Source: an uncultured Gammaproteobacteria bacterium (GTDB lineage: Bacteria > Patescibacteriota > Patescibacteriia > Patescibacteriales > WJLG01). Taken from it: a stretch of DNA of 62,642 nt. Within the stretch, counting starts at the first letter, position 1. Every line of letters begins with the position of its first letter. Location: contig CAZRQU010000004.1 in NCBI GenBank assembly GCA_964602485.1, positions 946 to 63,587 on the forward strand. The letters run 5' to 3'. Below are positions 968 through 58,534 of this stretch, piece after piece. The position numbers were made by a program, and so were the translations under genes. The notes beneath the pieces are model-generated. The model did not search any database and was not told the origin of the DNA. It worked only from the letters and a program-made list of their open reading frames with translations.

Positions 968-1543
968 ATGATTAAACTCCTAAAAGAACTAGCAAGCATC
1001 ATCAGCGGTTTTTCTTTGAAGCTGGCTTCAGACGGAACCGACTCAAAAAATATTATAGTTCAGGCTAGAGATATATCCGGTAATTTATATATTGATAAAA
1101 ATACATGTAAAGTAACTAATTTGGATAAAATACCGGAGAGGGCCATTTTGGAAGAGAATGATGTTGTGATAGCGGAAAGAGGTACATTAAATGCCGGCGT
1201 GGTCGGTCAAGATTTAAAAGGGGCGATAGCCTCTTCTTCTGTATTTATAATCAGACCTAATAAAACAGGTGTAGACCCGGCGTATCTAGCTTCTTATTTC
1301 AACTCTCCTAAGGGTAGAAAATATTTATTGCGCTTAGCTGAAGGTTCTCTGATAAAAAATATTTCAAAAAAACAACTTAGTGAAATACCGATATATGTTC
1401 CGGATCTGGAAACTCAAAAAATAATAGTGGACATGAATACAAATAAACAGAGACAGCTGGAACTATTAGAAAGAAAGAAGCAATTAGTTGGTCAGGTAGT
1501 GGAAAGTGCCATTAAACAAATACTTGATAATAAAAATAATTAA
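968..1543 (+). CDS. hsdS: Type I restriction-modification specificity subunit, half-size (single TRD)
   Basis: 191-aa ORF directly 5' of hsdM. One target-recognition domain plus the conserved helical spacer (PDLETQKIIVDMNTNKQRQLELLERKKQL). About half the length of the canonical HsdS at 7258-8394. Confidence 0.7.
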   Translation: MIKLLKELASIISGFSLKLASDGTDSKNIIVQARDISGNLYIDKNTCKVTNLDKIPERAILEENDVVIAERGTLNAGVVGQDLKGAIASSSVFIIRPNKTGVDPAYLASYFNSPKGRKYLLRLAEGSLIKNISKKQLSEIPIYVPDLETQKIIVDMNTNKQRQLELLERKKQLVGQVVESAIKQILDNKNN

Positions 1544-1547
1544 ATAT

Positions 1548-3065
1548 ATGACCGATAAAAAAATAACTCAAGAAGACCTCAATAAAACCTTGTGGGCTGG
1601 AGCGGATTCCTCTAGGGGCACGGTGGAAGCAAGCACTTTCAAAAATTATGTGCTGGCCATGCTTTTCTATAAATATTTAAGTGATGTTTCGGACGCCAAA
1701 ATTGAGCAATACAAGAAAAGGTTTGGTGATGATAAAGAGAGAATAAAAGATAAAATGAAAATGGATCGCTTTTATATCCCGGAAGAAGCTTCATTCAATT
1801 CTCTTTATAACAAAATCAGTGAAGATAATATTGGTGAAATACTCAACACAGCTTTTCATAAAATAGAAGACAATAACAAAGAAAAGCTGGCAGGGGTGCT
1901 TACTCGCTGGGATTTTAATAGTGAACATATCCTTGGAAAGATGGAGCAGAGGAATAAGATGATCCGCAATCTTTTTCAAGATTTTCATAAAATCAATTTG
2001 GCTGAAGTGGATGATGATATTATCGGCAATTCTTACATGTATATGATTGAACGCTTCGGTTCTGCTGCCGGCAAGAAAGCCGGAGAGTTCTTCACGCCTC
2101 GCTATGTTTCCAGGCTACTGGCCAAATTGGCTCAACCAAAACCGGGCGATAGAATATGCGATCCGGCCTGCGGTTCTGGTGGTTTGCTCCTTTTGGAAGG
2201 TAAAGAAGTAGAGAATAAAGGTTCAGATGATTACGCGCTTTATGGCCAGGAATCGGTCGGTGATACTTATCAATTGGCCAGAATGAATATGTTTCTGCAT
2301 GGCAAGGATTCGGCGAGAATTGAATGGGGCGACACTTTAAATGATCCCTTACTTTTGGAAGATGACAAGTTGATGAAATTTGATTTGGTAATTGCTAATC
2401 CGCCCTTTTCACTTAAGAAATGGGGAGCGGAAAATGCGGAAAAAGATAAATACAATCGTTTTCACAGAGGCATACCGCCAAAAGACAAAGGTGACTTTGC
2501 CTTTGTTTCCCATATGGTGGAAACTGCCAAGCCGAAATCAGGCCGAGTGGCAGTTATAGTTCCCCATGGTGTTCTATTCCGCGGAGGCGTGGAAGGCAAG
2601 ATTCGTCAAGCAATGTTGGAGGAGAATATAATTGATGCGGTTATCGGTTTGCCGGCCGGGCTTTTTCAGACAACCGGCATACCGGTCGCTATTTTGATAA
2701 TAGATAGATCCAGAGAAAAAGGCGGTGCTAATGAGAATAAGAAAGATATTCTATTTATTGAGGCATCAAAAGAATTCGTGCCTGGCAAAGCACAGAATAG
2801 CCTAAGCGAGGAGAATATAGATAAAATCTATAATACTTATGCCAAGAGAAAAGAAGTAGATAAATTTTCTAGAAAAGTGTTACCTGATGAAATAAAAGAA
2901 AATGACTATAATTTAAATATCACTCGCTATGTAGATACTTTTGAGGAAGAGGAAGAGATAGATATTCAGGCTAATCTAAAAGAGCTGGAAAAGATAAATC
3001 CGGAGTTGGAAAAATTAGAAAAAGAAATGGATGGATATTTAAAAAAATTGGGAATAAAAAAGTAA
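1548..3065 (+). CDS. hsdM: Type I R-M N6-adenine DNA methyltransferase subunit M
   Basis: Motifs GEFFTPRYV, DPACGSGGLL (motif I) and VIANPPFSLKKW (NPPF, motif IV). Start placed at ATG 1548 (MTDKKITQEDLNKTLW) instead of track start 1506, which overlaps the upstream S gene. Confidence 0.9.
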   Translation: MTDKKITQEDLNKTLWAGADSSRGTVEASTFKNYVLAMLFYKYLSDVSDAKIEQYKKRFGDDKERIKDKMKMDRFYIPEEASFNSLYNKISEDNIGEILNTAFHKIEDNNKEKLAGVLTRWDFNSEHILGKMEQRNKMIRNLFQDFHKINLAEVDDDIIGNSYMYMIERFGSAAGKKAGEFFTPRYVSRLLAKLAQPKPGDRICDPACGSGGLLLLEGKEVENKGSDDYALYGQESVGDTYQLARMNMFLHGKDSARIEWGDTLNDPLLLEDDKLMKFDLVIANPPFSLKKWGAENAEKDKYNRFHRGIPPKDKGDFAFVSHMVETAKPKSGRVAVIVPHGVLFRGGVEGKIRQAMLEENIIDAVIGLPAGLFQTTGIPVAILIIDRSREKGGANENKKDILFIEASKEFVPGKAQNSLSEENIDKIYNTYAKRKEVDKFSRKVLPDEIKENDYNLNITRYVDTFEEEEEIDIQANLKELEKINPELEKLEKEMDGYLKKLGIKK

Positions 3066-3118: not shown

Positions 3119-3808
3119 ATGCCATTTATATTTATTGATGAAAGTGGACAATTTGCTAAAAATAAAGACGGTGAATATTTCATAGCCGCTAGTTTTACTG
3201 TTGGTGATCCGAAGAGAACTAGAAAAGAATTATTGAAATGGCAAAGAAGTAAATTTCCTAAAAAAATGAGGCATCAGCCGGAAATTAAATTTTCTGATGT
3301 TAATATAGATTTAAAATTACGTTTAAAAACCTTGAAAAAGATTTCAGATTTAGATGTCAGGATTAATTATGTTTACCTGTTAAGAAGAAATATTCCAGGA
3401 GAGTATTGGAAGAACAAGAAATTAAAAAGCGGACACCTATATACCAACATAATTGGAGAAGTGCTAGAGCTGTATTATCCTATATCAAATAAAGAATTTA
3501 GAGTTTTTTGTGATGAAAGACATTTAAAAGGAATAAAAAGAAGTGAGTTTAAGGAAATTTTGAAATCAAGAATTGCTCCAGAAGTTTCTGGTGATACAGC
3601 TATTCAAATAGAGATGGTTGATTCTAAAAAAGATTACAATATACAGATAGCTGATTGGGTGGCGGGTGCTTTTTATGCTTATTATTCAGGGAAAAAAAAC
3701 GGTCAGGAGTATTTTGATATTTTGAAAGGAAATATTATAAACAGTAGAGAGCTTTTTAAAAATCATTGGGAGGATAAATTGGCAAACAAAAAATCCAATC
3801 AGAAATAG
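3119..3808 (+). CDS. DUF3800-family protein
   Basis: Starts MPFIFIDESGQF (DUF3800 D-E-S-G hallmark) and has the C-terminal IQIADWVAGAF motif. A hairpin overlaps its stop (atccaat..attggat, ~3793-3816). Confidence 0.7.
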   Translation: MPFIFIDESGQFAKNKDGEYFIAASFTVGDPKRTRKELLKWQRSKFPKKMRHQPEIKFSDVNIDLKLRLKTLKKISDLDVRINYVYLLRRNIPGEYWKNKKLKSGHLYTNIIGEVLELYYPISNKEFRVFCDERHLKGIKRSEFKEILKSRIAPEVSGDTAIQIEMVDSKKDYNIQIADWVAGAFYAYYSGKKNGQEYFDILKGNIINSRELFKNHWEDKLANKKSNQK

Positions 3809-3992
3809 ATTGGATGCTTTGTTAGAAGTAGCGTCTTATGAGATGGTTTATCCAAAGCTTAAGTCTCGGAAACTCCGAGGGAACACCTAGGCACCTCATA
3901 AACTATTATTGCATACTTCTATAATTAGTATACTGGAGTTATTATAGACTGTCAAGGTACTGACACAGAAGTAAAGGTAGTGATAAAATTAT

Positions 3993-4286
3993 ATGACTGA
4001 AGAAAAATATAAAAATTTTATAGATAGATTTTTAGAGCTTAAAGCAAAAACAGGTTTAGTTGCTAATAATATGCATAGAGGGAAAGAAATAAGACCAAAA
4101 TATATTTCATCTGAAGATATGGAAGAATGCAGGAAAACGGAGGAAGAATTGAAAAGTAGTTTTCAGGAGATGAGCTATGAGCAGTTAAAAAATCTTTTAG
4201 GTGAAAGAGAAATAAGTACTATGCCGGAGTTTGAAAAAGCTTTAGGAGAAAAAAGACAACGAAAAACATATGATGACAACAGATAA
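3993..4286 (+). CDS. Hypothetical small charged protein (97 aa)
   Basis: ORF with no recognised motif. Its 3' end overlaps the next ORF by 17 nt, so it is the first gene of a tightly coupled three-gene unit. Confidence 0.45.
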   Translation: MTEEKYKNFIDRFLELKAKTGLVANNMHRGKEIRPKYISSEDMEECRKTEEELKSSFQEMSYEQLKNLLGEREISTMPEFEKALGEKRQRKTYDDNR

Positions 4287-4743
4287 AATTTTGATCTGGC
4301 AAACAATTTTTACCGGATTAACATTTTTAGCTACCTTGTTGGTTGGTGTTTGGGCTTGGAGAATTGGTCGTAAACAGAATCAGGTTAGTGATTTTGTAGA
4401 AGTATTTGTGATGCCTCAAAGATTAAGCAAAAAAAACGAGGATGGAAAAGAAGAAGTAACTGGTTTTAATTTGTTAATAAAAAATGCTAGTTCCTATCCA
4501 GTGTATATAAATAAATATACCTTAAATGGTGTTAACCATTTAGTTGGCAGTAGTGTTGTCCCTAAAGATTCAAGTAATTGGTATTCTATTGGAGTCCCTA
4601 AAGATGTTCAAGACAAAGGTGAGTTATCGTTGGAGGTTGAGTTTGAGGATTATTTAGGTAAAAAATATACCTCTCAACAGTATGGAGAATTTAGAGGCCA
4701 TAATTGGAATATAAGAGGAGAAAAAAGAAAATTAATAAAATAG
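4270..4743 (+). CDS. Hypothetical single-pass membrane protein (157 aa)
   Basis: N-terminal hydrophobic helix ILIWQTIFTGLTFLATLLVGVWAW followed by a soluble domain. Overlaps the upstream ORF and ends 5 nt before the next. Confidence 0.5.
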   Translation: MMTTDKILIWQTIFTGLTFLATLLVGVWAWRIGRKQNQVSDFVEVFVMPQRLSKKNEDGKEEVTGFNLLIKNASSYPVYINKYTLNGVNHLVGSSVVPKDSSNWYSIGVPKDVQDKGELSLEVEFEDYLGKKYTSQQYGEFRGHNWNIRGEKRKLIK

Positions 4744-8394: not shown

Positions 8395-8474
8395 TAATTT
8401 TGGATTAAAGCGAGAGGTGTTAGAGTTTAAATAATATTATTGGACGTTAAGTTTGATAAGCGATAACACACCCC

Positions 8475-8502
8475 GGCCTTCGGCCACCCCTCTCAAGAGG
8501 GG
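8475..8502. repeat. Two adjacent short GC-rich hairpins (ggcc-ttc-ggcc; cccctc-tcaa-gagggg)
   Basis: GC-rich palindromes in otherwise AT-rich hsdS-hsdR spacer. They are what the track's N-terminal extension of hsdR translates (PRPSATPLKRG). Confidence 0.6.
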
Positions 8503-8554
8503 AATAAAATATAATTTGCAAATTGAAGTTTGCGAGTTTAAAAGATTGAATATT

Positions 8555-11500
8555 ATGTCAAATAACGAACAAATGATCAAGGCTGATTTTGATGAAGCTC
8601 GGGCATCGCAATTGCCTTTTGTTGAGCTTCTTCTTAATCTTGGCTATCAATATATCTCTGCCAAAGATGCTTTAACTGAAAGAGCCAGCAATTTAAGTAA
8701 GTTTGTTTTAAAGCAAACCGCTTTTGAGGTGCTGAAAAAATTAAACCCAGAAGTATCGGAAAAAAATATCTCTGATGCCATAGACGAGCTTGATAACATT
8801 CCCCTGGAAGGTTTGATAGATACTTCTAAGGAAGTTTATAATATCCTGATGCATAAGGGCGGTAAGACTGTAGTGGATATTGTGGATGGCAAAAAAGTAT
8901 CTAAGTCTTTGCAGTTTATTGATTTTGAAAACATTAATAATAATGTTTTCGAGGTAGCAGTGGAATATCCGGTAGAGGGCAGGGGCAATATTCGCCCGGA
9001 TATTGTTTTGTTTGTAAACGGCTTTCCTTTTGCTGTGGTAGAGAACAAGAAATCAAGCGTAAATATAAAAGAAGCGCTTAATCAGATGCAGAGAAATCAA
9101 GGAGTTGATTACGCCCCAAGATTTTTTGTCTATCCGCAATTATTGATCGCAGCTAATTGTGATAACTTCCTATACGGCAATACCGGCACGCCTTCTAAAT
9201 TCTATACTTCGTGGAAAGAAAAAGATGTTAAACAAGAACAAATAGATAATGAGATTTTAAAACATATAGCTAAACCGGTATCTGCGGAAGTGTATAATCA
9301 GTTGCTTTTGGATTTAAACGGTTCAACCTTTGGCCACAAACAGGTGTTAAACAGACAGGTAACCGAGCAAGACAGAGGCGTTTATAATATGCTTCGGCCG
9401 GACAGGATTTTGGATATTGCCAAGAACTTTATCCTTTATGATGCCGGCGACAAAAAATCAGCTAGATATCAGCAGTATTTTGCGATTGATAAAATATTAA
9501 AAAGAGTTTCAGAGTTCAAAGAAACAAGAACCGGCAGAAAGAGAAAAGGCGGTATTATCTGGCATACTCAAGGATCCGGAAAATCTTTGACAATGGTAAT
9601 GCTGGTTAAGGCTTTGATAGAGGAAGAAAGTATTATAAACCCGAGAATTATAGTGGTGACAGACAGGATTGATTTGGATAAACAGATTGCTACCACCTTT
9701 AAGAATTGCAACATTAAAAAAGATGTTATTACCGCGCGTACCGGAACGCATTTATTGGATTTGATAAAAGAAAAGAATCCAAATGTTATTACCACTCTGG
9801 TGTATAAATTTATTAAAGCCGGAAGTGATAAGAATAAAATTTCTGATACTGATGAAAACATTTTTGTATTGATAGATGAAGTTCATCGCACTCAAACAGG
9901 CGAAGCCAATTTTAGAATGAATATGGTTATTCCCAATGCCTGCTATATAGGATTTACCGGCACACCATTAATGACAAATGAAAAACATGTTTCTGTTTCC
10001 AAGTTTGGCGATTATATTGATAAATACACCATAGACGATGCTTTGGCTGACGGGGTTATATTGCCCTTGATATATGAGGGCAGGTTTATTGAGATGTATC
10101 AGAATGAAGCTCAAGTTGATGTGCATGTTGATAGAATTGATAGTGATATAGAAGAAGAAAAGAAAAAGGCGTATCAAAATAAAGTGTCCGAGGGGATTAT
10201 TAAAAACAATCCTAAAAGAATAGAGGAAATCGGCTATGATATTGGCAAACACTATGAAAAAGAATTTAAAGGAACAGGATTGAAGGGCCAAGTGGTGGCG
10301 CCCAGCAAGCATTCAGCTGTTTTATTTCAAAAGTATTTTGAGCAAAGCACAAAATTGAATACCGCTGTGATTATCTCCGACATCGGTGCCGGCGAAGACC
10401 CGGAAGATGACAAGAAAAAGGAAGTAGTGGATTTTTTGACTAATGTGAAGCATAAATACAGAGATTTGAAATCCTATGAAACAAATATTATAGAAAGTTT
10501 TAAAAAAGATCCTAACGGCGTTGAGCTTTTGATCGTGGTTGATAAACTTTTAACCGGTTTTGACGCGCCTAGAAATACCGTTCTTTATTTAGCTAAAGAT
10601 CTTAGGGATCATAACCTGCTGCAAGCCATTGCCAGAGTAAACAGGCTTTTTGACAATGAAGAAGACAAGTTACCTAAGACTGCTGGATATATTATAGACT
10701 ATTCGGAAAATGCCAAGAATTTAGATAGAGCGATGAAGCTGTTTGGCAATTATGATGAAGAAGATGTTCGCGGAACTTTGATTGACATAAAAGATAAAAT
10801 TTCTGATTTAGAGAAGTCTTATTCCGAGATTTCGGATTATTTTACAGCAATTAAAAATAAAGAAGATCAGGAAGAATATATAAAAAGGTTTGCTGAGGAA
10901 AAGGAAAGGAAAGACTTTTACGCCTCTGTAAATAATTTGTTGCGCAACTTGAATGAATGCATGACTTTGGAAGATTTTTCCAAAGAGTTTGATAAGCTGG
11001 ATACTTATCAGAAAGATATAAAAAAGATTTTAGAAATTCAAAAGAATGTCAGGGTGCGCTATACAGATGTGGATGATTATTCCGATTATAAGAAACAGCT
11101 GGTCAAGATACTTGATCGCTATGTGGATGCCAGGGAAGCGGAAGTTTTGACCATGCCAATTGACTTGAGCGATAAGGAATCTCTTAATAAAGTAGTTGAG
11201 GGCTTGGATTCAGATGCTTCTAAGGCTGAAGCTATCGCTGCTCAAACAGATAAAGTTATACATGATAATTGGAAAAGCGATCCGGAGTATTATGACAGGT
11301 TTTCCAAAAAGGTGGCGGATATTTTGGAAAAGATGAAGCTTAAAAAAATGGAGGATCTGGATGCCTTTAATCAGCTTAAGCTTTTGCGTGATGAAATGCT
11401 TGATAAAAAGGACGAGGAGTTGCCGAGTGGTATTGAGGTAAATTCCGGAAAAGATGTTTTTTATAGAAATTTACATGATAGTTTTAGGGGCATTGATGAG

Positions 11501-11728
11501 GCGGAGTATGTTGAAATTATAAATAGTATATTTGATATTCTAAAGAAAGAGGTAAAAGTAGACTGGCATAAGAATATGGAAGTTAAAAGGCAGATTATGA
11601 ATAAAGTTGATGACTACTTGTATGATGTTGTAAAAGCAGAAAAAGGGGTTGATTTAAGCAATGAAGATATGAAAAAGATTAATGAGAGGGTGATTGAATT
11701 GGCTGTTATGAATAATGAAATGTTTTAA
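8555..11728 (+). CDS. hsdR: Type I restriction endonuclease subunit R
   Basis: Nuclease motif RPDIVLFVNGFPFAVVENKK. SF2 motor motifs HTQGSGKSLTM (motif I) and LIDEVHRTQ (motif II). Start moved to ATG 8555 (MSNNEQMIKADFDEARASQLPFVELL), excluding the hairpin-derived extension. Confidence 0.9.
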   Translation: MSNNEQMIKADFDEARASQLPFVELLLNLGYQYISAKDALTERASNLSKFVLKQTAFEVLKKLNPEVSEKNISDAIDELDNIPLEGLIDTSKEVYNILMHKGGKTVVDIVDGKKVSKSLQFIDFENINNNVFEVAVEYPVEGRGNIRPDIVLFVNGFPFAVVENKKSSVNIKEALNQMQRNQGVDYAPRFFVYPQLLIAANCDNFLYGNTGTPSKFYTSWKEKDVKQEQIDNEILKHIAKPVSAEVYNQLLLDLNGSTFGHKQVLNRQVTEQDRGVYNMLRPDRILDIAKNFILYDAGDKKSARYQQYFAIDKILKRVSEFKETRTGRKRKGGIIWHTQGSGKSLTMVMLVKALIEEESIINPRIIVVTDRIDLDKQIATTFKNCNIKKDVITARTGTHLLDLIKEKNPNVITTLVYKFIKAGSDKNKISDTDENIFVLIDEVHRTQTGEANFRMNMVIPNACYIGFTGTPLMTNEKHVSVSKFGDYIDKYTIDDALADGVILPLIYEGRFIEMYQNEAQVDVHVDRIDSDIEEEKKKAYQNKVSEGIIKNNPKRIEEIGYDIGKHYEKEFKGTGLKGQVVAPSKHSAVLFQKYFEQSTKLNTAVIISDIGAGEDPEDDKKKEVVDFLTNVKHKYRDLKSYETNIIESFKKDPNGVELLIVVDKLLTGFDAPRNTVLYLAKDLRDHNLLQAIARVNRLFDNEEDKLPKTAGYIIDYSENAKNLDRAMKLFGNYDEEDVRGTLIDIKDKISDLEKSYSEISDYFTAIKNKEDQEEYIKRFAEEKERKDFYASVNNLLRNLNECMTLEDFSKEFDKLDTYQKDIKKILEIQKNVRVRYTDVDDYSDYKKQLVKILDRYVDAREAEVLTMPIDLSDKESLNKVVEGLDSDASKAEAIAAQTDKVIHDNWKSDPEYYDRFSKKVADILEKMKLKKMEDLDAFNQLKLLRDEMLDKKDEELPSGIEVNSGKDVFYRNLHDSFRGIDEAEYVEIINSIFDILKKEVKVDWHKNMEVKRQIMNKVDDYLYDVVKAEKGVDLSNEDMKKINERVIELAVMNNEMF

Positions 11729-20706: not shown

Positions 20707-21312
20707 ATGGCAAAAAAACAAATAATATTCATCCATGGTGGGATGACATTCAAGAACAAAAAGGAATATATCAATTATCTTAAAACAAGAGATATAAAAC
20801 TTCATAAATTCGAACGTTGGCATAGTGGATTCTTGGATAAGAAGCTGGGCAAGGAATTTGATATAATAAGACCGAGAATGCCCTTGGCTGACAATGCCAA
20901 ATACGAAGAATGGAAAATAAACTTCGAACGGTACATCCCCTTACTTAAGAGTGGCGTGATACTGATAGGTGAGTCTTTGGGGGCCACCTTTCTGGCTAAG
21001 TATCTTTCGGAAAACAGGTTTCCTAAAAAGATAAAAAAAGTTTTTTTAGTGGCCCCGCCATTTGATAATTCTTTGAAAGGAGAAGCTTTGGTCGGTGGGT
21101 TCAAGTTGAAGGGCGATCTGGCTTTGATAATAAAGAATTGCAAGGATGTTAATTTACTTTTTTCTACTACCGATGATTGCGTACCCCTGGAGCATGCCTA
21201 TAAATATAAACAGAAATTACCAGAAGCTAATTTTGAAATATATGACCATGTTCAGGGGCACTTCAAGGTTTCTGAGTTGCCAGAGATAGTGAAGATGATA
21301 AAAGAGGTCTAA
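20707..21312 (+). CDS. Alpha/beta-fold serine hydrolase (YdeN/RBBP9-like)
   Basis: IIFIHGG, nucleophile elbow GESLGA, then TTDDCVP (Asp) and VQGHF (His). About 200 aa, as in the small Ser_hydrolase family. Confidence 0.7.
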   Translation: MAKKQIIFIHGGMTFKNKKEYINYLKTRDIKLHKFERWHSGFLDKKLGKEFDIIRPRMPLADNAKYEEWKINFERYIPLLKSGVILIGESLGATFLAKYLSENRFPKKIKKVFLVAPPFDNSLKGEALVGGFKLKGDLALIIKNCKDVNLLFSTTDDCVPLEHAYKYKQKLPEANFEIYDHVQGHFKVSELPEIVKMIKEV

Positions 21313-21395
21313 AGAACGAGAAGGTAGGAAATAGATCAATAAGATTATCTAGATACAACCTGTGATAATGAGTTTTGTATAGCTTGTTTTTAGGA

Positions 21396-21626
21396 TTGTA
21401 TTTTTGAATATTTCTGGTATAATACATTTATATGATAATAAGCAATAGATCAAACCAGAATTTGATGAAGACCGTCAATACGGCCATTTTTGCTTATACT
21501 ACCACTACCAAGAAGAACAATACCAAGGATGATGATACGTCCGGGAGTGGTTTCATATGCAAAACATAGGAGATAGATCCAAATAGACATAAAAGAAACC
21601 GCTTCCAAAAAAGGAGGCGGTTTTTT
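21396..21626 (+). promoter_or_regulatory. Promoter + leaderless 45-aa leader ORF (21432-21569) + terminator/antiterminator: putative attenuator
   Basis: ttgtat-N16-TGgTATAAT (-10 at 21418-21423), with the ATG 8 nt later. Peptide: MIISNRSNQNLMKTVNTAIFAYTTTTKKNNTKDDDTSGSGFICKT. Segment 21544-21554 (ggagtggtttc, inside the ORF) can pair with 21595-21606. That region is also the left arm of the terminator aaccgcttcc/ggaggcggtt + T6 (21597-21626). Confidence 0.45.
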
Positions 21627-21680
21627 AAAAGATCGGAACTATAGTTAATGTACCTTTAAATATGAAAGGGAGGAAAGAAA

Positions 21681-23444
21681 ATGTCTTTCAACCAAGCTAA
21701 TTTCGTTGGCCGAAAATGTGTCATGAGAACGGGGAGCGGTATTTGCAGGACGCCTGACGACCTTTTGGAAAGCCCTTTGTTGGCCAAGGTCGTGGGTAAA
21801 TTCGTTCGGCATCTGCGTGAACGCGAGTCAAGGCTTTTGTCAGTTTTTGGCGCGGTGGGAGCGGATGGTGATGGGATCGGCAGGCTGATCAAGGTCTTTC
21901 AGGCCTTGGATCAGACGCCGATCGAAGAGGTCGTTTCCGAGCATCCGGAAATGAGAGAATTTTTGCAGGATCCGGAGCTACTCAATGATCTTGTGGAACA
22001 TCTTTATAACTACTGGCGCAGTTTTGAAAGATTTTTGGTCTGCGATTCGAAGGAGGGAGATCCCGGAAAGAGTCCTTATCGGATCTTTGCTGATACGGTT
22101 GAACAGCTTGACCACTTGGTGCGGGCTGTTTATCGGGATGTTCAAAGGAATATCATCGGCAGGGGTTGCAAGGTGTATCGCCAAGTTTGCGCCAGCGCTC
22201 AGGTGGGATTGATCGCTGAGCCAAAGGATTGGCCTTGTCCGGATGGCCCTTATGCGGTTCTTCGAGAGGTTCTGATGATCAGGCAGATACTTTTGAATCC
22301 GCCCTTGATCATTGATCCGTCAATGAACAAACGGACCGGGCAATTCACTCGAGTGAGCACCAATCCTTTGGAAGGTTTGAACATTGAAGAAGACAAATGG
22401 CTTTGCTATCCGGCCAAAGTCGGAGAGCTTTTGATCCATGTCTTTTTCAACCAGAGCGTCATTGACTTGGGTTGTTCTTTGGCCAATTTATTCGAACTGG
22501 CAGATGAAGAGGATCTTGCAAAAGCGCCGGATGCGGTTTACGTTTTCGGGGCTTCGGGAGATGATCTGGCCAGGTACGGTTCATTGCCAACGGTCTTTTT
22601 CGATGACGAGGAGAACGATCTATTGGTGGCAGCTGTGCCGGGCGATCCTCAATTCGGATACTTCGGGTATCTGAAGAAGATGATCCTTACTCTGCACAAT
22701 GTGGTTATGATGAAGCGCGGGCATATGCCTTATCACGGAGCAATGGTCAACATTACTCTAAAGAATGGAAGTTCGGCCACGGTTCTATTGATCGGCGATA
22801 CCGGTGCCGGCAAATCCGAGACCCTGGAAGCCTTTCGTGTTTTGAGTGAGGAACATATTCGGGATATGACTATCATTGCCGATGATATGGGATCGCTCAA
22901 AATAGATAAGGAAAGGGGCTTGCTTGGCTACGGCACGGAGATCGGAGCCTTTGCTCGCTTGGATGATCTGCCACGCTCTTTTGCTCTTGAGCAAATTGAT
23001 CGGGCGATCGTGATGAGTGCTCACAAGACGAATGCCAGAGTGGTATTGCCAGTGACGACATTGGCCAACATTCTCAAAGGTTGGAGGGTGGACTTCATCT
23101 TCTATGCTAATAATTACGAGGACATTGGCGATAGTCGCCCGATAATAGAGCGCTTTGATTCGGCCGAGACTGCCTTAAAGGTCTTTTCCGAAGGCAAGGT
23201 GATGGCCAAAGGGACTACGACCGACACTGGTGTTGTTAGTAAGTATTGGGCAAATATTTTCGGAGCGCCGCAATACCGAGAACTGCACGACGAGCTGGCT
23301 GAAAAGCATCTTGAAGCCGCTTTTCAAGAAGGTATCTTTATGGGTCAGATCAGAACCAGGCTGGGTCTTGCCGGCTGGGAAATGAAAGGGCCGGAAGAAA
23401 CAGCCAAGGCTATGTTAGACATTATTTCTAAACAAAAGGATTAG
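21681..23444 (+). CDS. Uncharacterised protein with C-terminal HPr-kinase/ATP-PEPCK-like P-loop domain (587 aa)
   Basis: GGGAGG RBS. P-loop LLIGDTGAGKSETLEAF followed by IIADDMGSL and GTEIGAFARL, in the order seen in HprK (GDSGxGKSE..ADD..EIRG) and ATP-PEPCK folds. The N-terminal ~350 aa have no motif I recognise. Confidence 0.55.
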   Translation: MSFNQANFVGRKCVMRTGSGICRTPDDLLESPLLAKVVGKFVRHLRERESRLLSVFGAVGADGDGIGRLIKVFQALDQTPIEEVVSEHPEMREFLQDPELLNDLVEHLYNYWRSFERFLVCDSKEGDPGKSPYRIFADTVEQLDHLVRAVYRDVQRNIIGRGCKVYRQVCASAQVGLIAEPKDWPCPDGPYAVLREVLMIRQILLNPPLIIDPSMNKRTGQFTRVSTNPLEGLNIEEDKWLCYPAKVGELLIHVFFNQSVIDLGCSLANLFELADEEDLAKAPDAVYVFGASGDDLARYGSLPTVFFDDEENDLLVAAVPGDPQFGYFGYLKKMILTLHNVVMMKRGHMPYHGAMVNITLKNGSSATVLLIGDTGAGKSETLEAFRVLSEEHIRDMTIIADDMGSLKIDKERGLLGYGTEIGAFARLDDLPRSFALEQIDRAIVMSAHKTNARVVLPVTTLANILKGWRVDFIFYANNYEDIGDSRPIIERFDSAETALKVFSEGKVMAKGTTTDTGVVSKYWANIFGAPQYRELHDELAEKHLEAAFQEGIFMGQIRTRLGLAGWEMKGPEETAKAMLDIISKQKD

Positions 23445-23466: not shown

Positions 23467-23509
23467 AAAAGGCCTTTTCCCGGGAGACATCCTATGGAAA
23501 AGGCCTTTT
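23467..23509. terminator. Bidirectional intrinsic terminator
   Basis: Perfect 14-bp stem aaaaggccttttcc / ggaaaaggcctttt flanked by A/T runs, between convergent genes. Confidence 0.8.
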
Positions 23510-23531
23510 TATATTTTCGATATCCAGATAA

Positions 23532-24844: not shown

Positions 24845-27019
24845 TTGCCAAGAAAGAGAGCTATATATCCTTGTGAAGTCTTGAAGGAAAAGTTGTCACA
24901 GCTGGGAATATTCAGTCAAAAGGAGTATGAAAGATATCGGGATTCTTTAGCCAAGGAGGAAAGAGCTAATTGGCCCAGGGAGCCCAACAGGGCTTACGAA
25001 GAGCCGGTTTTCATCTATTCTAAGAAGTATTCAGCCAAGGAATTGCGGGTCAAATTGAAAAAACTCGGAATCTGGCGAATGAAGCAATATTTGGAATATC
25101 GTCGGAATTTGCCGGAAGACGAAAGATCCAGGTGCCCCGGAGATCCGAATCGGGTCTATGGAGAGCGTTTCTTCAAGCCCGTTAAGATCTATTCCTATGC
25201 CATCCTAAGAAGGAGAGTCAGGGAAGCTGGCATAAGGAGCTTTGAGAAGTATTGGTCTTACAGAGATTCTTTGCCGGATAAGGAAAAGGCCAGATGGCCA
25301 TGCGATCCGCACAGGACTTATGGAAGTCGATATGACTTTGAGGATCTTTTTGGGGTACCCAAACATGAGACCAAGAGGCTTGAACTTTGCGATCTTGAGG
25401 AATTATTAAAGGGCGTGAGGGAGCTTGGCATCGGATCGTATGAAGAGTACACCCGCAGTTTGGGTAGGCTTTCAGCGGTCTGCGGGAAGAAATTCCCTAA
25501 GAGTCCGAGACAAGCCTTTGGTGACCTTTATGATGCCGGCAAGGTTTTCATAAAAGGATCGCCTTATCACTCGTACGAGATGATCAAGCGGATAGTCAAG
25601 CGGGAGGACTTGAGAAGCCATGAGGAATATCAGGCTTATCGGTCCAGGTTGCCGGAGAAGAAAAAAAGCCGGTACCCTCATCGCCTCTCTTATTATCCTG
25701 AGTATTGTGCCAAGGCTTTGTTCAAAGTTCGAGTGTACAGCCAGATAGAGCTCAGGCAGTTGATCCGCGAAGCCGGCATCAGGGGCAAGGAGGCCTATCA
25801 CGCCCATCGGATGTCGCTTGCTTTGCGGGAGAGAAGGAGATGGCCGTCAAATCCGGAAAAGACCTATGGCATCGCTTATTCCCGAGCCTTCTACAACATA
25901 GAAGATTGGGAGGTCAACGGTTATCATCCTATACCAGTCCTTTCACGCAAGGCCAGAAAGCTGGGCGCCACCAGCATTAAGTCTTACAGGCGGATGAGAA
26001 GTGCTATCAAGGATGATCAAGAGCGGGCCAAATGGCCGATAGATCTGAAGAAGGCTTATCCTGACTTCAATTATTATGCTTTTTTCGGCAATCGTCCTCC
26101 TGAAGATCGTTTCTATCCTTACGAGACCATGAAGCGCAAGGTTCATAGTTTCCGGCTAAGGACCAGGGAGCAGTATCGGGAATGGAAGAAGAATATCAAG
26201 GATCCTTTTGAACGGAGGCGTTGGCCTTCGCAGCCGCGCGAGGTTTACGATCAATTCGATCCGGACGATTTCTTTTATCGGCCGCCGAAGGATAAGATGA
26301 GCTTTAAGGAGGCTCAAGAATATTTAGAGCAGAGAAAGGCGGTTTTCGTTTCTGATTATAAGCGGTTACGGAAAGTCGAGCCTCGTCTTCCTTGGGATCC
26401 GGCCGGGTTCTGGCGGAAGAACGGCAAGAATTCGGATCAGCTTTTTCTTTATCGGAGGTCTGGTCCGCTGATCAAGGCCGGAAACATCTATTATTATGAG
26501 TTGGCCGAATATCAACTTTTCTTACGGACGAACGCCATTCTTACTCGGGTGCAATATCTGAAGGCAAGAAGTCGTTTGCCGGACGAAGAAAGGAAGTTTT
26601 ATCCAACTCATCCGGATCAGATATATCCGAGGTTCTATGGAACAGATGACGGCATCTTTGAGAATACCGATTTCTTCAAGCTATGGGGAGAATTCTCTTC
26701 AGCGGCCGAGATGAGTCAGGCAGTAAGAGCCTTGGGTGTTCGTAGTCAAAAGGGATTCACCAAGATAGTCGAGGAAATACCAGCTTTTTCTGTTGATCCA
26801 ACAAGCTTCGGTGATTGGCCGGGCAAGCTTCTGGGGCATACGGAAAAGGAGGCTTGGGAGATATTCTTAGGTTTTTACGACCATAGCCTTAATTATCATC
26901 CAGAAGAGGAACGCGAGCCGAGGACTAGCGAGATGGAGCCGGACGCAGAGCCTACGGATGATGATATTGCCAAGATGCTGGCCGAGATGGGCGATCCGGT
27001 TGAAGCTTTTGATGATTGA
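24845..27019 (+). CDS. Tandem-repeat protein (about 11 repeats of 55-70 aa) with acidic tail
   Basis: TTG start 5 nt after AAGGAGG. Repeat core: L..LGI.S..EY..YR..LP..E...WP..P...Y (e.g. YLEYRRNLPEDERSRCPGDPNRVYG; YWSYRDSLPDKEKARWPCDPHRTYG; YREWKKNIKDPFERRRWPSQPREVYD). C-terminal DAEPTDDDIAKMLAEMGDPVEAFDD. Confidence 0.7.
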   Translation: MPRKRAIYPCEVLKEKLSQLGIFSQKEYERYRDSLAKEERANWPREPNRAYEEPVFIYSKKYSAKELRVKLKKLGIWRMKQYLEYRRNLPEDERSRCPGDPNRVYGERFFKPVKIYSYAILRRRVREAGIRSFEKYWSYRDSLPDKEKARWPCDPHRTYGSRYDFEDLFGVPKHETKRLELCDLEELLKGVRELGIGSYEEYTRSLGRLSAVCGKKFPKSPRQAFGDLYDAGKVFIKGSPYHSYEMIKRIVKREDLRSHEEYQAYRSRLPEKKKSRYPHRLSYYPEYCAKALFKVRVYSQIELRQLIREAGIRGKEAYHAHRMSLALRERRRWPSNPEKTYGIAYSRAFYNIEDWEVNGYHPIPVLSRKARKLGATSIKSYRRMRSAIKDDQERAKWPIDLKKAYPDFNYYAFFGNRPPEDRFYPYETMKRKVHSFRLRTREQYREWKKNIKDPFERRRWPSQPREVYDQFDPDDFFYRPPKDKMSFKEAQEYLEQRKAVFVSDYKRLRKVEPRLPWDPAGFWRKNGKNSDQLFLYRRSGPLIKAGNIYYYELAEYQLFLRTNAILTRVQYLKARSRLPDEERKFYPTHPDQIYPRFYGTDDGIFENTDFFKLWGEFSSAAEMSQAVRALGVRSQKGFTKIVEEIPAFSVDPTSFGDWPGKLLGHTEKEAWEIFLGFYDHSLNYHPEEEREPRTSEMEPDAEPTDDDIAKMLAEMGDPVEAFDD

Positions 27020-38579: not shown

Positions 38580-39602
38580 TTGGAAAAATGGACGGAGTTA
38601 GTAGGGGAATTTTGTTCCCTGGTCGGCGATTACAGGCGAGAAGATGATATTACGGTCATCACACCCGGCCGAGTGAGTCGGTGGGTAAGGCAGTTCGAGC
38701 GTTACGGTTTTTCCCAGGATGGCATGAAAAGGATACTCAAATCCCTTTCAAGTGTTCTTAAACGCACTTATATCTCCAGGGAAAGGACGATAGATTTCCT
38801 TATCCGCTTGGTGAAGCGTGTAGAGAAGAGATCCGGAGTGGGAAAACATCATATCAATTTTCTCTCTTTACAGAAACAAGGGAAGAGCCAGTCCGATATG
38901 CTGGCTTTAACCGAGGAGTACGTATTGGGAAGGAGCATTGGGGATTGCGGAGGTTCCGACGTTTATCTTTATATGGATGATGTCGTTTATTCCGGCAATC
39001 GTTTTCGCTACGAATTGAGCGGTTGGATCAATGATCAAGCACCTAAAGGAGCCAGGATCTATTCCGGCCATATGGTAATGCACACTCAAGGCGCCCAATA
39101 CGCCATCGGTCAAATAAGAAAAGTGGCCGAGAGCAAGGAGGTGGCCTTTTTTTCGGCTAAACAAACTTCTTTTTCCAACAACAAGAAGTTTCGAACCTAT
39201 GAAGCCTTGTGGCCTCGGGCGATCAATGATCCGAAAGTACAGGAATATATCCGCAGGTCGCAAGCCAGGGCTTTGTCCAAATTCGGATTTGCCCCGATCA
39301 TAGCTCGCGATCATGCAGTTGAATGCGATCTTCTTTCCTCAGAGGAAAGAGTGTTTCTGGAAAATGCTTTCTTGGCTTGCGGTATCGAGTTGGTGAACGC
39401 CGCTGCCAGTCCAAGTCAGAATATGAGACCGATGGGATTTGAAGTTCTTGAAGGTTTCGGATTCGGGGCCCTAACGGTCACTTGGCGCAATATCGCCAAT
39501 AATTGTCCTTTGGCCCTTTGGTATGGCGATCCGGATAATTATCCGCAAGATCATCCTTTTGGTCAGTGGTTCCCTTTGTTTCCCAGAAAAGGAGGATATT
39601 AA
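38580..39602 (+). CDS. Phosphoribosyltransferase-like protein (tentative), 340 aa
   Basis: TTG start 6 nt after AAGGAG. SDVYLYMDDVVYSGNRF resembles the PRPP-binding loop (hydrophobic strand, D-D-x-x-x-S-G) of type I PRTases. The rest is unrecognised (C-terminal PMGFEVLEGFGFGALTVTWRNIANNCPLALWYGDP..WFPLFPRKG). Confidence 0.45.
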   Translation: MEKWTELVGEFCSLVGDYRREDDITVITPGRVSRWVRQFERYGFSQDGMKRILKSLSSVLKRTYISRERTIDFLIRLVKRVEKRSGVGKHHINFLSLQKQGKSQSDMLALTEEYVLGRSIGDCGGSDVYLYMDDVVYSGNRFRYELSGWINDQAPKGARIYSGHMVMHTQGAQYAIGQIRKVAESKEVAFFSAKQTSFSNNKKFRTYEALWPRAINDPKVQEYIRRSQARALSKFGFAPIIARDHAVECDLLSSEERVFLENAFLACGIELVNAAASPSQNMRPMGFEVLEGFGFGALTVTWRNIANNCPLALWYGDPDNYPQDHPFGQWFPLFPRKGGY

Positions 39603-56096: not shown

Positions 56097-56286
56097 TTGA
56101 CAATCACTGATATTTTGCTATATAATCATAACATATGAATTTTTCTCAAAGCGCCAACATTATAGACATTATTAGCATTATTGACATTAATGCTATTTCG
56201 TTTTGCGCTTTGAAGAAGATTTGATAGAAAAAAGAAAGTTCATATAAATAAGATCGTCTTCAAAGCAGGGAGGCGATCTTTTATTT
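56097..56286 (+). promoter_or_regulatory. Promoter + leaderless Ile-rich leader ORF (56135-56224) + attenuator
   Basis: TTGACA (56097-56102), N18, TATAAT (56121-56126), with the ATG 8 nt later. Peptide MNFSQSANIIDIISIIDINAISFCALKKI (9 Ile of 29). Segment 56207-56220 (last codons) pairs 13/14 with 56253-56266. That region overlaps the terminator stem 56250-56259/56271-56280 + T-run. Confidence 0.7.
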
Positions 56287-56377
56287 ATATCAAAAGCTCC
56301 GACCTTCGGAGCAATTAACAAGCCCTTTTGAAAATCGATCTTTTCATAAACCCAATCAAAAAGACAAGGAGATCTTT

Positions 56378-58081: not shown

Positions 58082-58310
58082 TTTTCATCATTTATGCGGG
58101 CTTTAAAAGTTTGGATATTTATCCTCTTTACAAAAATTATCATATGGTTTAAGATAGATATCAATCCTGCAAGAGAACATTTTATTCTGTACATTGAAGA
58201 AAAGAAAGAGCCGATAAGCAATTAGCAATGTCGTGCCTTAAATACTAACCCCGTGAAAGCCCGAAGGAAAGGTTACCATCAAGGAGAATCTTTCCTTCGG
58301 GCTTTATTTA

Positions 58311-58485
58311 TTGACAACCATTTGTTTAAGGTTTAATATATATTCATATGATACAAATCGCCAAAAAAGAATTATTGTTGAGCTTGTTGTTGGACCTGCC
58401 TAGTCCCGGTGGTTTGTTTATTGATACCTAAAAGATCTTATATAGAGAAAGAACCGCCTGGGATATATCAGGCGGTTCTTTTTTT
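58311..58485 (+). promoter_or_regulatory. Promoter + leaderless Leu-rich leader ORF (58348-58431) + attenuator
   Basis: TTGACA (58311-58316), N17, TAATAT (58334-58339), with the ATG 8 nt later. Peptide MIQIAKKELLLSLLLDLPSPGGLFIDT (8 Leu of 27). ccggtggtt (58406-58414) can pair with aaccgcctgg (58452-58461), the left arm of the terminator gaaccgcctg/caggcggttc + T7 (58451-58485). Confidence 0.7.
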
Positions 58486-58534
58486 GTGTGAAATATGTTC
58501 TTTGTCAATATTAAAACCAAAAAAGGAGGCTGTT

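Follow-up and report, generated by a model that had tools for sequence, protein, structure and literature searches.

A candidate leaderless leader-peptide attenuator in front of a gene for an uncharacterised PEP carboxykinase-like protein

Introduction

The contig CAZRQU010000004.1 carries, within the 62,642 nucleotides (nt) analysed here (positions 946 to 63,587, hereafter the window), a 587-codon gene preceded by a short open reading frame (ORF) and a terminator-like hairpin. This arrangement raises the question of whether the gene is controlled by the translation of a leader peptide and, if so, which amino acids would be sensed and what kind of enzyme would be regulated. An earlier note, made from the DNA sequence alone, had proposed an attenuator responding to Thr, Lys and Asn in front of an enzyme supplying the aspartate family of amino acids. 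Here, we describe the anatomy of this leader, to which we refer as the pck-like leader, the alternative structures of its RNA, two related leaders in the same window and the fold of the 587-aa protein. The complete account, in which a lineage-specific leaderless ribosome-mediated attenuator ties a probable oxaloacetate-forming phosphoenolpyruvate (PEP) carboxykinase (PEPCK)-like enzyme to aspartate-family amino-acid supply, is in our judgment about evenly poised between being right and being wrong; its parts differ in strength and are graded where they are discussed.

Results

A 45-codon ORF with a unique codon run lies directly behind a promoter

The intergenic region upstream of the 587-aa gene (21313-21680) coincides with a compositional boundary, with approximately 30% GC to its left and 40-49% GC to its right. 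It contains the following elements:

21396-21423, plus strand: leader promoter, read directly from the sequence, with a weak -35 (TTGTAT, 21396-21401), a 16-nt spacer and an extended -10 (TGgTATAAT, 21415-21423)
21432-21569, plus strand: leader ORF of 45 codons with no Shine-Dalgarno sequence, opened by the ATG at 21432 and closed by the stop codon at 21567-21569
21498-21539, plus strand: putative regulatory codon run, codons 23-36 of the leader ORF, TTTTKKNNTKDDDT
21668-21673, plus strand: Shine-Dalgarno sequence GGGAGG of the 587-aa gene, 7 nt before its ATG, read from the sequence
21681-23444, plus strand: the 587-codon gene, whose product is assigned below to the PEPCK superfamily

As the earlier note had pointed out, the extended -10 element lies 8 nt before the ATG of the leader ORF (ACATTTAT). 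From the usual distance between a -10 element and the transcription start site, the predicted 5' untranslated region (UTR) is 0-2 nt long, and the ORF is thus predicted to be leaderless. Its translation reads MIISNRSNQNLMKTVNTAIFAYTTTTKKNNTKDDDTSGSGFICKT, and codons 23-36 (ACT ACC ACT ACC AAG AAG AAC AAT ACC AAG GAT GAT GAT ACG) encode an uninterrupted series of Thr, Lys, Asn and Asp. In the six-frame translation of the whole window, AT-rich island included, this is the sole stretch of at least 10 residues composed of these four amino acids, and there is only one other TTTT run. Across the core genes, these four amino acids have a combined frequency of 0.225. A-rich low complexity as the source of the run is an explanation that the earlier note had named as a possible refutation.

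We also scanned the window for the composite of a -10 box, a gap of 6-9 nt, an ATG, an ORF of 12-70 codons and a terminator. Two sites were returned, the pck-like leader and an Ile leader described below, as compared to 0.13 expected in shuffles. A third leader, rich in Leu, fell outside the scan because its -10 (TAATAT) matches the consensus at only 4/6 positions.

The leader RNA is predicted to form three mutually exclusive helices

RNAfold predicted three mutually exclusive helices in the pck-like leader (1:2, 2:3 and 3:4), which are built from four segments:

21492-21509, plus strand: segment 1, containing the four Thr codons; pairs with segment 2 in the minimum-free-energy and centroid structures of the full leader
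21543-21554, plus strand: segment 2, GGGAGUGGUUUC, codons 38-41 of the leader ORF; partner of segment 1 or segment 3
21595-21606, plus strand: segment 3, GAAACCGCUUCC; forms the left arm of the terminator or, in the alternative fold, the right arm of the antiterminator
21613-21626, plus strand: segment 4 together with the U6 tract, GGAGGCGG UUUUUU; completes the intrinsic terminator as its right arm

In helix 1:2, the Thr codons at 21501-21509 pair with 21543-21551 (-14.9 kcal/mol in the fold of 21490-21560). In the antiterminator, helix 2:3, positions 21543-21554 pair with 21595-21606 over 12 bp (-22.1 kcal/mol), while in the terminator, helix 3:4, positions 21593-21606 pair with 21613-21626 over 14 bp and are followed by the U run (-20.9 kcal/mol). 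Thus, the pairing of the last codons of the ORF with the left arm of the terminator, from which the earlier note had deduced the 2:3 versus 3:4 logic of classical attenuators, is borne out by the folding. The complete leader folded with z = -5.4 relative to dinucleotide shuffles, and upon removal of the 3' arm of the terminator the minimum-energy structure became the antiterminator. Pairing of the ORF region with segment 3 gave a best duplex of -20.7 kcal/mol, in contrast to -8.1 +/- 1.9 kcal/mol in shuffles, none of which (0/2000) attained this value. Because the fold, the duplex, the codon run and the composite scan all exceed chance, we reject the objection that the element is ordinary A-rich low complexity.

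The leader does not correspond to a catalogued RNA family. A search of the window with Rfam at the gathering threshold and of 21250-21750 in permissive mode yielded only sub-threshold chance matches for the leader; the Thr_leader model (RF00506) scored 15.8 bits, below its cutoff of 55.

Proposed mode of action of the pck-like leader

Transcription would start at the AUG of the 45-codon ORF or 2 nt before it, so that the leader would be translated without a Shine-Dalgarno sequence. When charged tRNA-Thr is scarce, the ribosome would stall on codons 23-32, in or just after segment 1. Scarcity of tRNA-Lys or tRNA-Asn would probably have the same effect, and that of tRNA-Asp possibly. With codons 23 to ~32 (four Thr, two Lys, two Asn, Thr, Lys) in its A site, the stalled ribosome would occupy segment 1 and end upstream of 21543; the stall would break helix 1:2, allowing segment 2 to pair with segment 3 and RNA polymerase to read through into the 587-aa gene. 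The Asp codons 33-35 are a borderline case, as segment 2 would start to be masked by a ribosome halted on them. With well-charged tRNAs, the ribosome would reach the stop codon at 21567-21569 and cover the 3' half of segment 2, and the 3:4 terminator would end the transcript near 21626. If the leader were not translated at all, helices 1:2 and 3:4 would both form and transcription would terminate. We consider it likely that the pck-like leader is a functional attenuator of this kind.

Thr, Lys, Asn and Asp are made from oxaloacetate via aspartate. Because the four amino acids of the leader derive from oxaloacetate, an enzyme of the PEPCK type converting PEP to oxaloacetate would be a logical target of such regulation. 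Ile codons are not part of the signal of this leader; a separate Ile leader precedes a gene resembling that of citramalate synthase (CimA-like gene).

Two leaders of the same design precede biosynthetic genes in the window

The two other leaders are found in the right part of the window:

56097-56290: Ile leader element with an Ile-rich ORF at 56135-56224, preceding the CimA-like gene
58311-58490: Leu leader element with a Leu-rich ORF at 58348-58431, preceding leuA

The Ile leader at 56.1 kb consists of TTGACA-N18-TATAAT, 8 nt, an ATG opening MNFSQSANIIDIISIIDINAISFCALKKI and then a terminator. The Leu leader at 58.3 kb shows TTGACA-N17-TAATAT, 8 nt and an ATG opening MIQIAKKELLLSLLLDLPSPGGLFIDT, with an antiterminator and a terminator before LeuA. 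In all three leaders of the window, exactly 8 nt ending in AT-ATG separate the -10 element from the start codon, and the helix logic is common to all of them, which agrees with the geometry that the earlier note had described. The gene behind the Ile leader gave its best NCBIfam match over the full length with citramalate synthase (TIGR00977; 219.5 bits as compared to a cutoff of 450). An Ile-rich leader in front of a gene of this type suggests that the organism makes Ile from pyruvate.

Both the Ile and the Leu leader are kept, including their peptide runs and terminators, in a syntenic contig from sample SRR25621646 (L092, at 2208-2400 and 4287-4462, respectively) whose LeuA is 68% identical. 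This conservation indicates that the lineage of the window uses leaderless leader-peptide attenuators and that they persist at the divergence of L092.

The terminators of the pck-like (21595-21626) and Leu (58451-58485) leaders have a common core, AACCGC…GGCGGTT, and segment 2 is also similar between the two (CCGGGAGTGGTTTC in the pck-like leader and CCCGGTGGTTTG in the Leu leader). An origin by duplication was considered and is not claimed, as the alignment of the three leaders shows similar stems, a resemblance too weak to separate homology from convergence.

A further conserved non-coding element occupies approximately 58150-58310, between the stop codon of the cimA-like gene and the promoter of the Leu leader, and has its counterpart in L092 at approximately 4150-4285. 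It reads …cattgaagaaaagaaagagccgat…gtcgtgcct…gaaagcccgaagga…ccttcgggctttatt and ends in a hairpin with a T run. Rfam gave no match for this element at the gathering threshold; it could be a small RNA (sRNA) or a structured 3' UTR.

The 587-aa protein has the fold and the active-site residues of PEPCKs

The earlier note had regarded a P-loop module, ordered as in HPr kinase and ATP-PEPCK, as the only recognisable part of the protein. The motifs GDTGAGKSE, ADD and EIGAFAR are indeed present; their being the only recognisable part did not hold, since a whole two-domain PEPCK fold with its catalytic residues could be discerned. The AlphaFold2 model, based on a 35-sequence alignment, had a predicted local distance difference test score (pLDDT) of 84.9 and a predicted template-modelling score (pTM) of 0.86. 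When this model was compared with the Protein Data Bank (PDB) by Foldseek, ATP-PEPCKs were matched with an E-value of 4e-15 over 360-440 aligned columns and GTP-PEPCKs over up to 506 columns. The E-values of the matches ranged from 4e-15 to 1e-12 and the template-modelling (TM) scores from 0.39 to 0.46. Only PEPCKs were among the top matches listed, with no HprK structure among them, and the pyrophosphate (PPi)-dependent PEPCK did not appear in the top 50. At the sequence level, hhalign aligned residues 267-585 with residues 148-465 of E. coli PckA at a probability of 17%.

We then related the catalytic residues of PckA, whose numbering was checked, to an alignment of 35 family members from several phyla (A1). 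Each of the following elements has an invariant counterpart in A1:

22659-22679, plus strand: Y327-F-G-Y-L-K332-K333, corresponding to PckA Y207 and K212-K213; Y327, G329, K332 and K333 invariant
22734-22736, plus strand: H352, corresponding to the Mn-ligand H232 of PckA
22794-22817, plus strand: P-loop G372-D-T-G-A-G-K378-S379, corresponding to PckA G248..K254-T255
22881-22886, plus strand: D401-D402, kinase-2 motif, corresponding to PckA D268-D269
23031-23039, plus strand: N451-A-R453, corresponding to PckA N331-T-R333, with the Arg that binds oxaloacetate/PEP
Residues 510-515: KGTTT in a loop of low pLDDT, corresponding to the mobile lid GITEPTPT of PckA

The alignment of the YxGxxKK element was also obtained by phmmer against 1j3b. 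The N-terminal domain is approximately 100 residues longer than that of PckA, with a largely helical extension (residues 25-160), and contains Arg residues that are specific to the family and invariant in A1 (R113, R117, R148, R152, R167 and R218).

The view that the gene encodes an HPr-kinase-like protein sharing just a P-loop is not sustained, as the Hpr_kinase_C model (PF07475) scored 15.8 bits, below its cutoff of 33.3 (E 0.01), and the N-terminal domain is of the PEPCK type. The Pfam and NCBIfam models of GTP-PEPCK gave no match, and no sequence relative was found in the PDB, profile search included. An attempt to bridge to canonical PEPCKs through ten divergent family members (24-35% identity) was likewise unsuccessful, as none of them reached the Pfam PEPCK threshold.

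Its fold and active site place the protein almost certainly in the PEPCK superfamily. Within it, an uncharacterised PEPCK-like class is the most fitting description, since the protein does not qualify as ATP-PEPCK, GTP-PEPCK or HprK/P by the tests for those families. Motif conservation and the structural model incline us, by a little, to regard it as a true PEP/oxaloacetate carboxykinase, in keeping with the guess of a PEPCK-like enzyme in the earlier note. Such an enzyme would interconvert PEP, CO2 and a nucleoside diphosphate with oxaloacetate and a nucleoside triphosphate. The direction here would presumably be toward oxaloacetate, from which Asp, Asn, Thr and Lys are derived.

The protein represents a widespread and unusually tight family

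Homologues of the 587-aa protein form more than 6,770 clusters at 90% identity, nearly all with a length of 580-600 aa and a full-length identity of 50-71%. Because only 546 representatives match at 50% clustering, the family is unusually tight, and it remains approximately 50% identical across bacterial phyla and archaea. Neither Pfam nor NCBIfam has a model for the family; none of the homologues has a precomputed Pfam domain, and many are named 'phosphoenolpyruvate carboxykinase' by NCBI. The bacterial hosts include Planctomycetota, Omnitrophota, Bacteroidales, Spirochaetota, Chloroflexota, Actinomycetota, Thermodesulfobacteriota, Bacillota and Atribacterota, the latter with the cultured Atrimonas thermophila and Thermatribacter velox. 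Among archaea, the family is found in metagenome-assembled genomes of Woesearchaeota, Nanoarchaeota and Bathyarchaeota. Complete genomes with a member of the family include AP028803.1, CP184673.1 and OW818666.1. Literature searches for any member of the family, which included the accession numbers of named members, revealed no characterisation, and one paper on Atribacterota that was checked for the enzyme did not mention it.

The recurrent neighbours of the family gene are MpsC, AroA and AroC. In Phycisphaerae, the gene lies between aroA (5-enolpyruvylshikimate-3-phosphate synthase) and aroC (chorismate synthase), and the arrangement with gaps of 13-83 nt recurs in several Planctomycetota. 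Six loci from different phyla have a small gene of the MpsC/DUF2294 family directly upstream in the same orientation. Loci with one of these neighbourhoods include L019, L029 and L031 (Phycisphaerae), L069 and L072. AroA uses PEP. These neighbours point to a link with PEP or CO2 and are suggestive rather than decisive.

Observations that weigh against the proposed regulation and function

Several results count against the proposed account, and we set them out together. At the level of the DNA elements, a generic promoter/terminator scanner called neither the leader promoter nor the leader terminator. The promoter was missed because its -35 matches at only 3/6 positions, and the weakness of this -35 is in itself unfavourable; the terminator was missed because its stem runs into the T tract. 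The sequence itself and RNAfold nevertheless show both elements clearly. In addition, only the four Thr codons, which lie in segment 1, are certain to take part in the switch, because Lys and Asn are common in an AT-rich genome.

The most substantial of the adverse results concern conservation, which the earlier note had named as a check and whose lack it had listed as a refutation. For the leader, conservation is indeed lacking: none of the other orthologue loci examined has it, and it is thus known from one genome only. The closest orthologue loci (60-71% identity; L002/L003, L004, L005, L088, L089 and L091) have no ORF-terminator module upstream of the gene, where we read by eye a plain promoter and a Shine-Dalgarno sequence. 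Among 79 loci of GTDB species representatives, which have a median gap of 108 nt upstream of the family gene, a scripted scan found none (0) with a small ORF rich in Thr, Lys, Asn and Asp together with a terminator, and Rfam detected no element upstream of the gene in 15 orthologue loci with long upstream gaps. Since the Ile and Leu leaders persist over a comparable divergence, the absence of the pck-like leader elsewhere is real and not an effect of sampling. Searches for the leader in sequencing data were also negative: none of the RNA-seq runs searched was found to contain it. A metagenome scan with the back-translated TTTTKKNNTK gave five matches, all in low-complexity stretches of unrelated ORFs, and contigs from three DNA runs over the leader region yielded only short fragments of distant homologues.

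The divergence of the closest orthologue, in L002 (71%), resembles that of the nearest relatives of the window by GlmS (72%) and LeuA (68%), and L002 may represent the same sister lineage as L092. If this is the case, the pck-like leader was either gained in the lineage of the window or lost in the sister lineage, while the Ile and Leu leaders were kept. The nearest named relatives of GlmS are approximately 43% identical (Patescibacteria), while LeuA is nearest to bacteria of the Planctomycetota-Verrucomicrobiota-Chlamydiota (PVC) group (53%). Judged from these searches, the lineage is poorly sampled.

On the side of the enzyme, the 587-aa protein falls below the threshold of every Pfam and NCBIfam model, all PEPCK models included: PEPCK_ATP (PF01293) scored 15.7 bits relative to a cutoff of 26.5 (E 0.006), and PRK09344 (NF006821) 21.9 bits relative to a cutoff of 369 (E 5.8e-5). 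The equivalent of PckA R65 could not be placed, as the hhalign probability in the N-terminal part is 2.8% and unreliable; the candidates are R164/R167 or R218. Clustering of the neighbours at the 79 loci did not reveal a conserved operon around the family gene, with no neighbour family in more than six loci. DPANN archaea have little amino-acid biosynthesis, and the presence of the family there is at odds with a role confined to amino-acid supply. Because of this occurrence, the general role of the family is probably PEP/oxaloacetate interconversion rather than supply of the aspartate family specifically.

Alternative explanations

The leader could be a genuine attenuator that senses Thr only. 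The codons for Lys, Asn and Asp would then be A-rich filler that happens to separate segment 1 from segment 2, and a connection with the aspartate family as a whole would be over-read. Helix 1:2 includes only the four consecutive Thr codons, Thr accounts for 9/45 leader residues as compared to 4.4% in the core genes while Lys reaches 8% genome-wide, and the masking of segment 2 expected for a stall on the nearby Asp codons 33-35 points in the same direction. However, the 14-codon run is unique in six frames, even with 21 kb of approximately 30% GC DNA in the window, and a stall on codons 27-32 (KKNNTK) would still free segment 2, and we find a Thr-only sensor improbable. Even less probable, in our view, is an independent element, either a small gene (an sRNA or a small protein) or the terminator of the upstream hydrolase gene (20707-21312), with the 587-aa gene having its own promoter. 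A TATAGT at 21641-21646 could act as a -10, the stretch from 21312 to the leader shows no terminator, so that the hairpin may also end the upstream transcript, and the lack of the leader at all the orthologue loci examined would agree with such an origin. Yet a generic scan called no promoter on the plus strand between the leader terminator and the 587-aa gene, the antiterminator pairing is far beyond chance, and the geometry equals that of two leaders of the same genome that stand before cognate biosynthetic genes. Moreover, a plain terminator needs no complementary copy of its own 3' arm in an upstream ORF. A chance juxtaposition of a spurious A-rich ORF and an ordinary terminator, to which the single genome and the AT-rich region might lend some weight, is hardly credible, as the fold, composite-scan, codon-run and duplex statistics are far outside the shuffle distributions and the two analogous elements in the window are both conserved in L092.

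With the attenuator thus preferred, the identity of the reaction is the other point at which a different explanation has to be weighed. The protein may have a PEPCK fold and catalyse a different phosphoryl transfer, with another carboxylic or enol substrate or another donor, in which case the regulation would serve some other aspartate-family or central step. The marginal similarity to PEPCKs (15.7 bits in Pfam as compared to 26.5 and 17% in hhalign), TM-scores of only 0.4-0.46, a P-loop with GKSE as in HPr kinase instead of GKTT and an N-terminal domain longer by approximately 100 residues with many family-specific invariant Arg residues would all be compatible with such a change of reaction. 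Nevertheless, all tested C-terminal catalytic residues of PckA, including the Mn ligands and the Arg of NxR, have invariant counterparts, and the top Foldseek matches listed are all PEPCKs. We therefore hold a different reaction to be unlikely, if less so than a sensor of Thr alone.

Other features of the window

The 587-aa gene is followed by a hairpin at 23467-23517, AAAAGGCCUUUUCC / GGAAAAGGCCUUUU, with T/A runs on both sides as read from the sequence, which is predicted to terminate transcription of both the 587-aa gene and the GSDH gene that converges on it. A 724-aa protein (24845-27019), encoded two genes downstream from the PEPCK-like one, consists by eye of approximately 12 tandem repeats of approximately 45 residues each with the motif …Y..YR..LP..E+..WP..P...Y…; it has no Pfam or NCBIfam match.

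To the left, the leader region adjoins a 21-kb accessory/defence island of approximately 30% GC (window positions 1-21312), which contains:

1506-3065: HsdM, type I restriction-modification
3119-3808: DUF3800 gene
3824-3920, minus strand: DUF3800-V RNA, 77.9 bits
7258-8394: HsdS, type I restriction-modification
8453-11728: HsdR, type I restriction-modification
Other genes of the island: RadC, DUF6119, PIF1-like helicase, HNH endonuclease, pentapeptide-repeat protein, NUDIX protein and serine hydrolase

In the core part of the window, a gene at 38580-39602 codes for a protein with a PRTase-CE domain (E 1.7e-33), a family that has been linked to defence systems.

Discussion

The pck-like leader resembles the attenuators of E. 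coli trpL, thrL (RF00506), leuL, ilvL, hisL and pheL in that codons for the amino acids exerting the control are clustered in a short ORF. It also shares with them the set of mutually exclusive helices (1:2, 2:3 and 3:4), the location of an intrinsic terminator immediately in front of the structural gene and a stop codon positioned so that a terminating ribosome would mask segment 2. In contrast to the E. coli systems, the ORF here is predicted to be leaderless and the target lies at the PEP/oxaloacetate node instead of in a pathway-specific operon. The codon mix also differs from that of E. coli thrL, with Thr, Lys, Asn and Asp in place of Thr and Ile. To our knowledge, no ppc or pck gene is controlled by leader-peptide attenuation, and our literature search for such a case found none.

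Leaderless leader peptides have precedents. Studies of Deinococcus deserti, Corynebacterium diphtheriae and the ilvBNC operon of Corynebacterium glutamicum reportedly describe leader peptides translated from a 5'-terminal AUG and controlling amino-acid genes. According to PMC4007540, most mRNAs of D. deserti start exactly at or very near the start codon. The terms 'leaderless', 'leader peptide' and 'attenuation' all occur in this paper as well as in PMC5784534 on C. diphtheriae and PMC11857589 on C. glutamicum ilvBNC. The leader described here differs from those of Deinococcus and Actinobacteria by belonging to another, poorly sampled lineage and by the gene that it would regulate.

The 587-aa protein has in common with PckA (PF01293) and GTP-PEPCK (PF00821) the two-domain fold, YxGxxKK, the Mn-ligand His, the P-loop, DD, NxR and a flexible Thr-rich lid. 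It differs from both by scoring below the thresholds of their models, by the N-terminal extension (25-160) and by the GKSE P-loop, and its family is tighter than the classical PEPCKs, with approximately 50% identity across phyla. With HprK/P (PF07475), it shares the GxxGxGKSE P-loop followed by ADD, both being placed in the 'PEP carboxykinase-like' superfamily, whereas HprK/P is approximately 310 aa long, has an unrelated N-terminal domain and is without the YxGxxKK, His and NxR elements. The PPi-dependent PEPCK of the Entamoeba/Propionibacterium type, an enzyme of approximately 1,150 aa that uses PPi, offers a parallel as a divergent class of the superfamily long missed by standard models. 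It is twice the size of the 587-aa protein, which, unlike PPi-PEPCK, keeps a canonical nucleotide P-loop.

The attenuation mechanism as such is textbook; new are its target at the PEP/oxaloacetate node and the mixed Thr/Lys/Asn/Asp codon signal. If the proposed account is true, anaplerotic carbon flow would be metered by the charging of all tRNAs for the amino acids derived from oxaloacetate. In its broadest form, which we advance tentatively and with more doubt than confidence, the 587-aa family would be a fourth, so far unrecognised class of PEP carboxykinase, serving as the main anaplerotic or fermentative enzyme from PEP to oxaloacetate in many anaerobic phyla and some archaea, with its expression raised here by shortage of Thr, Lys, Asn or Asp. 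The locus would then provide the first physiological clue to the direction of the enzyme and an instance of attenuation acting on a central-carbon node, not a pathway operon. Together with the cultured hosts of the family, this regulatory clue makes the NCBI name 'phosphoenolpyruvate carboxykinase' testable, and the outcome would touch the metabolic reconstructions of many uncultured anaerobes.

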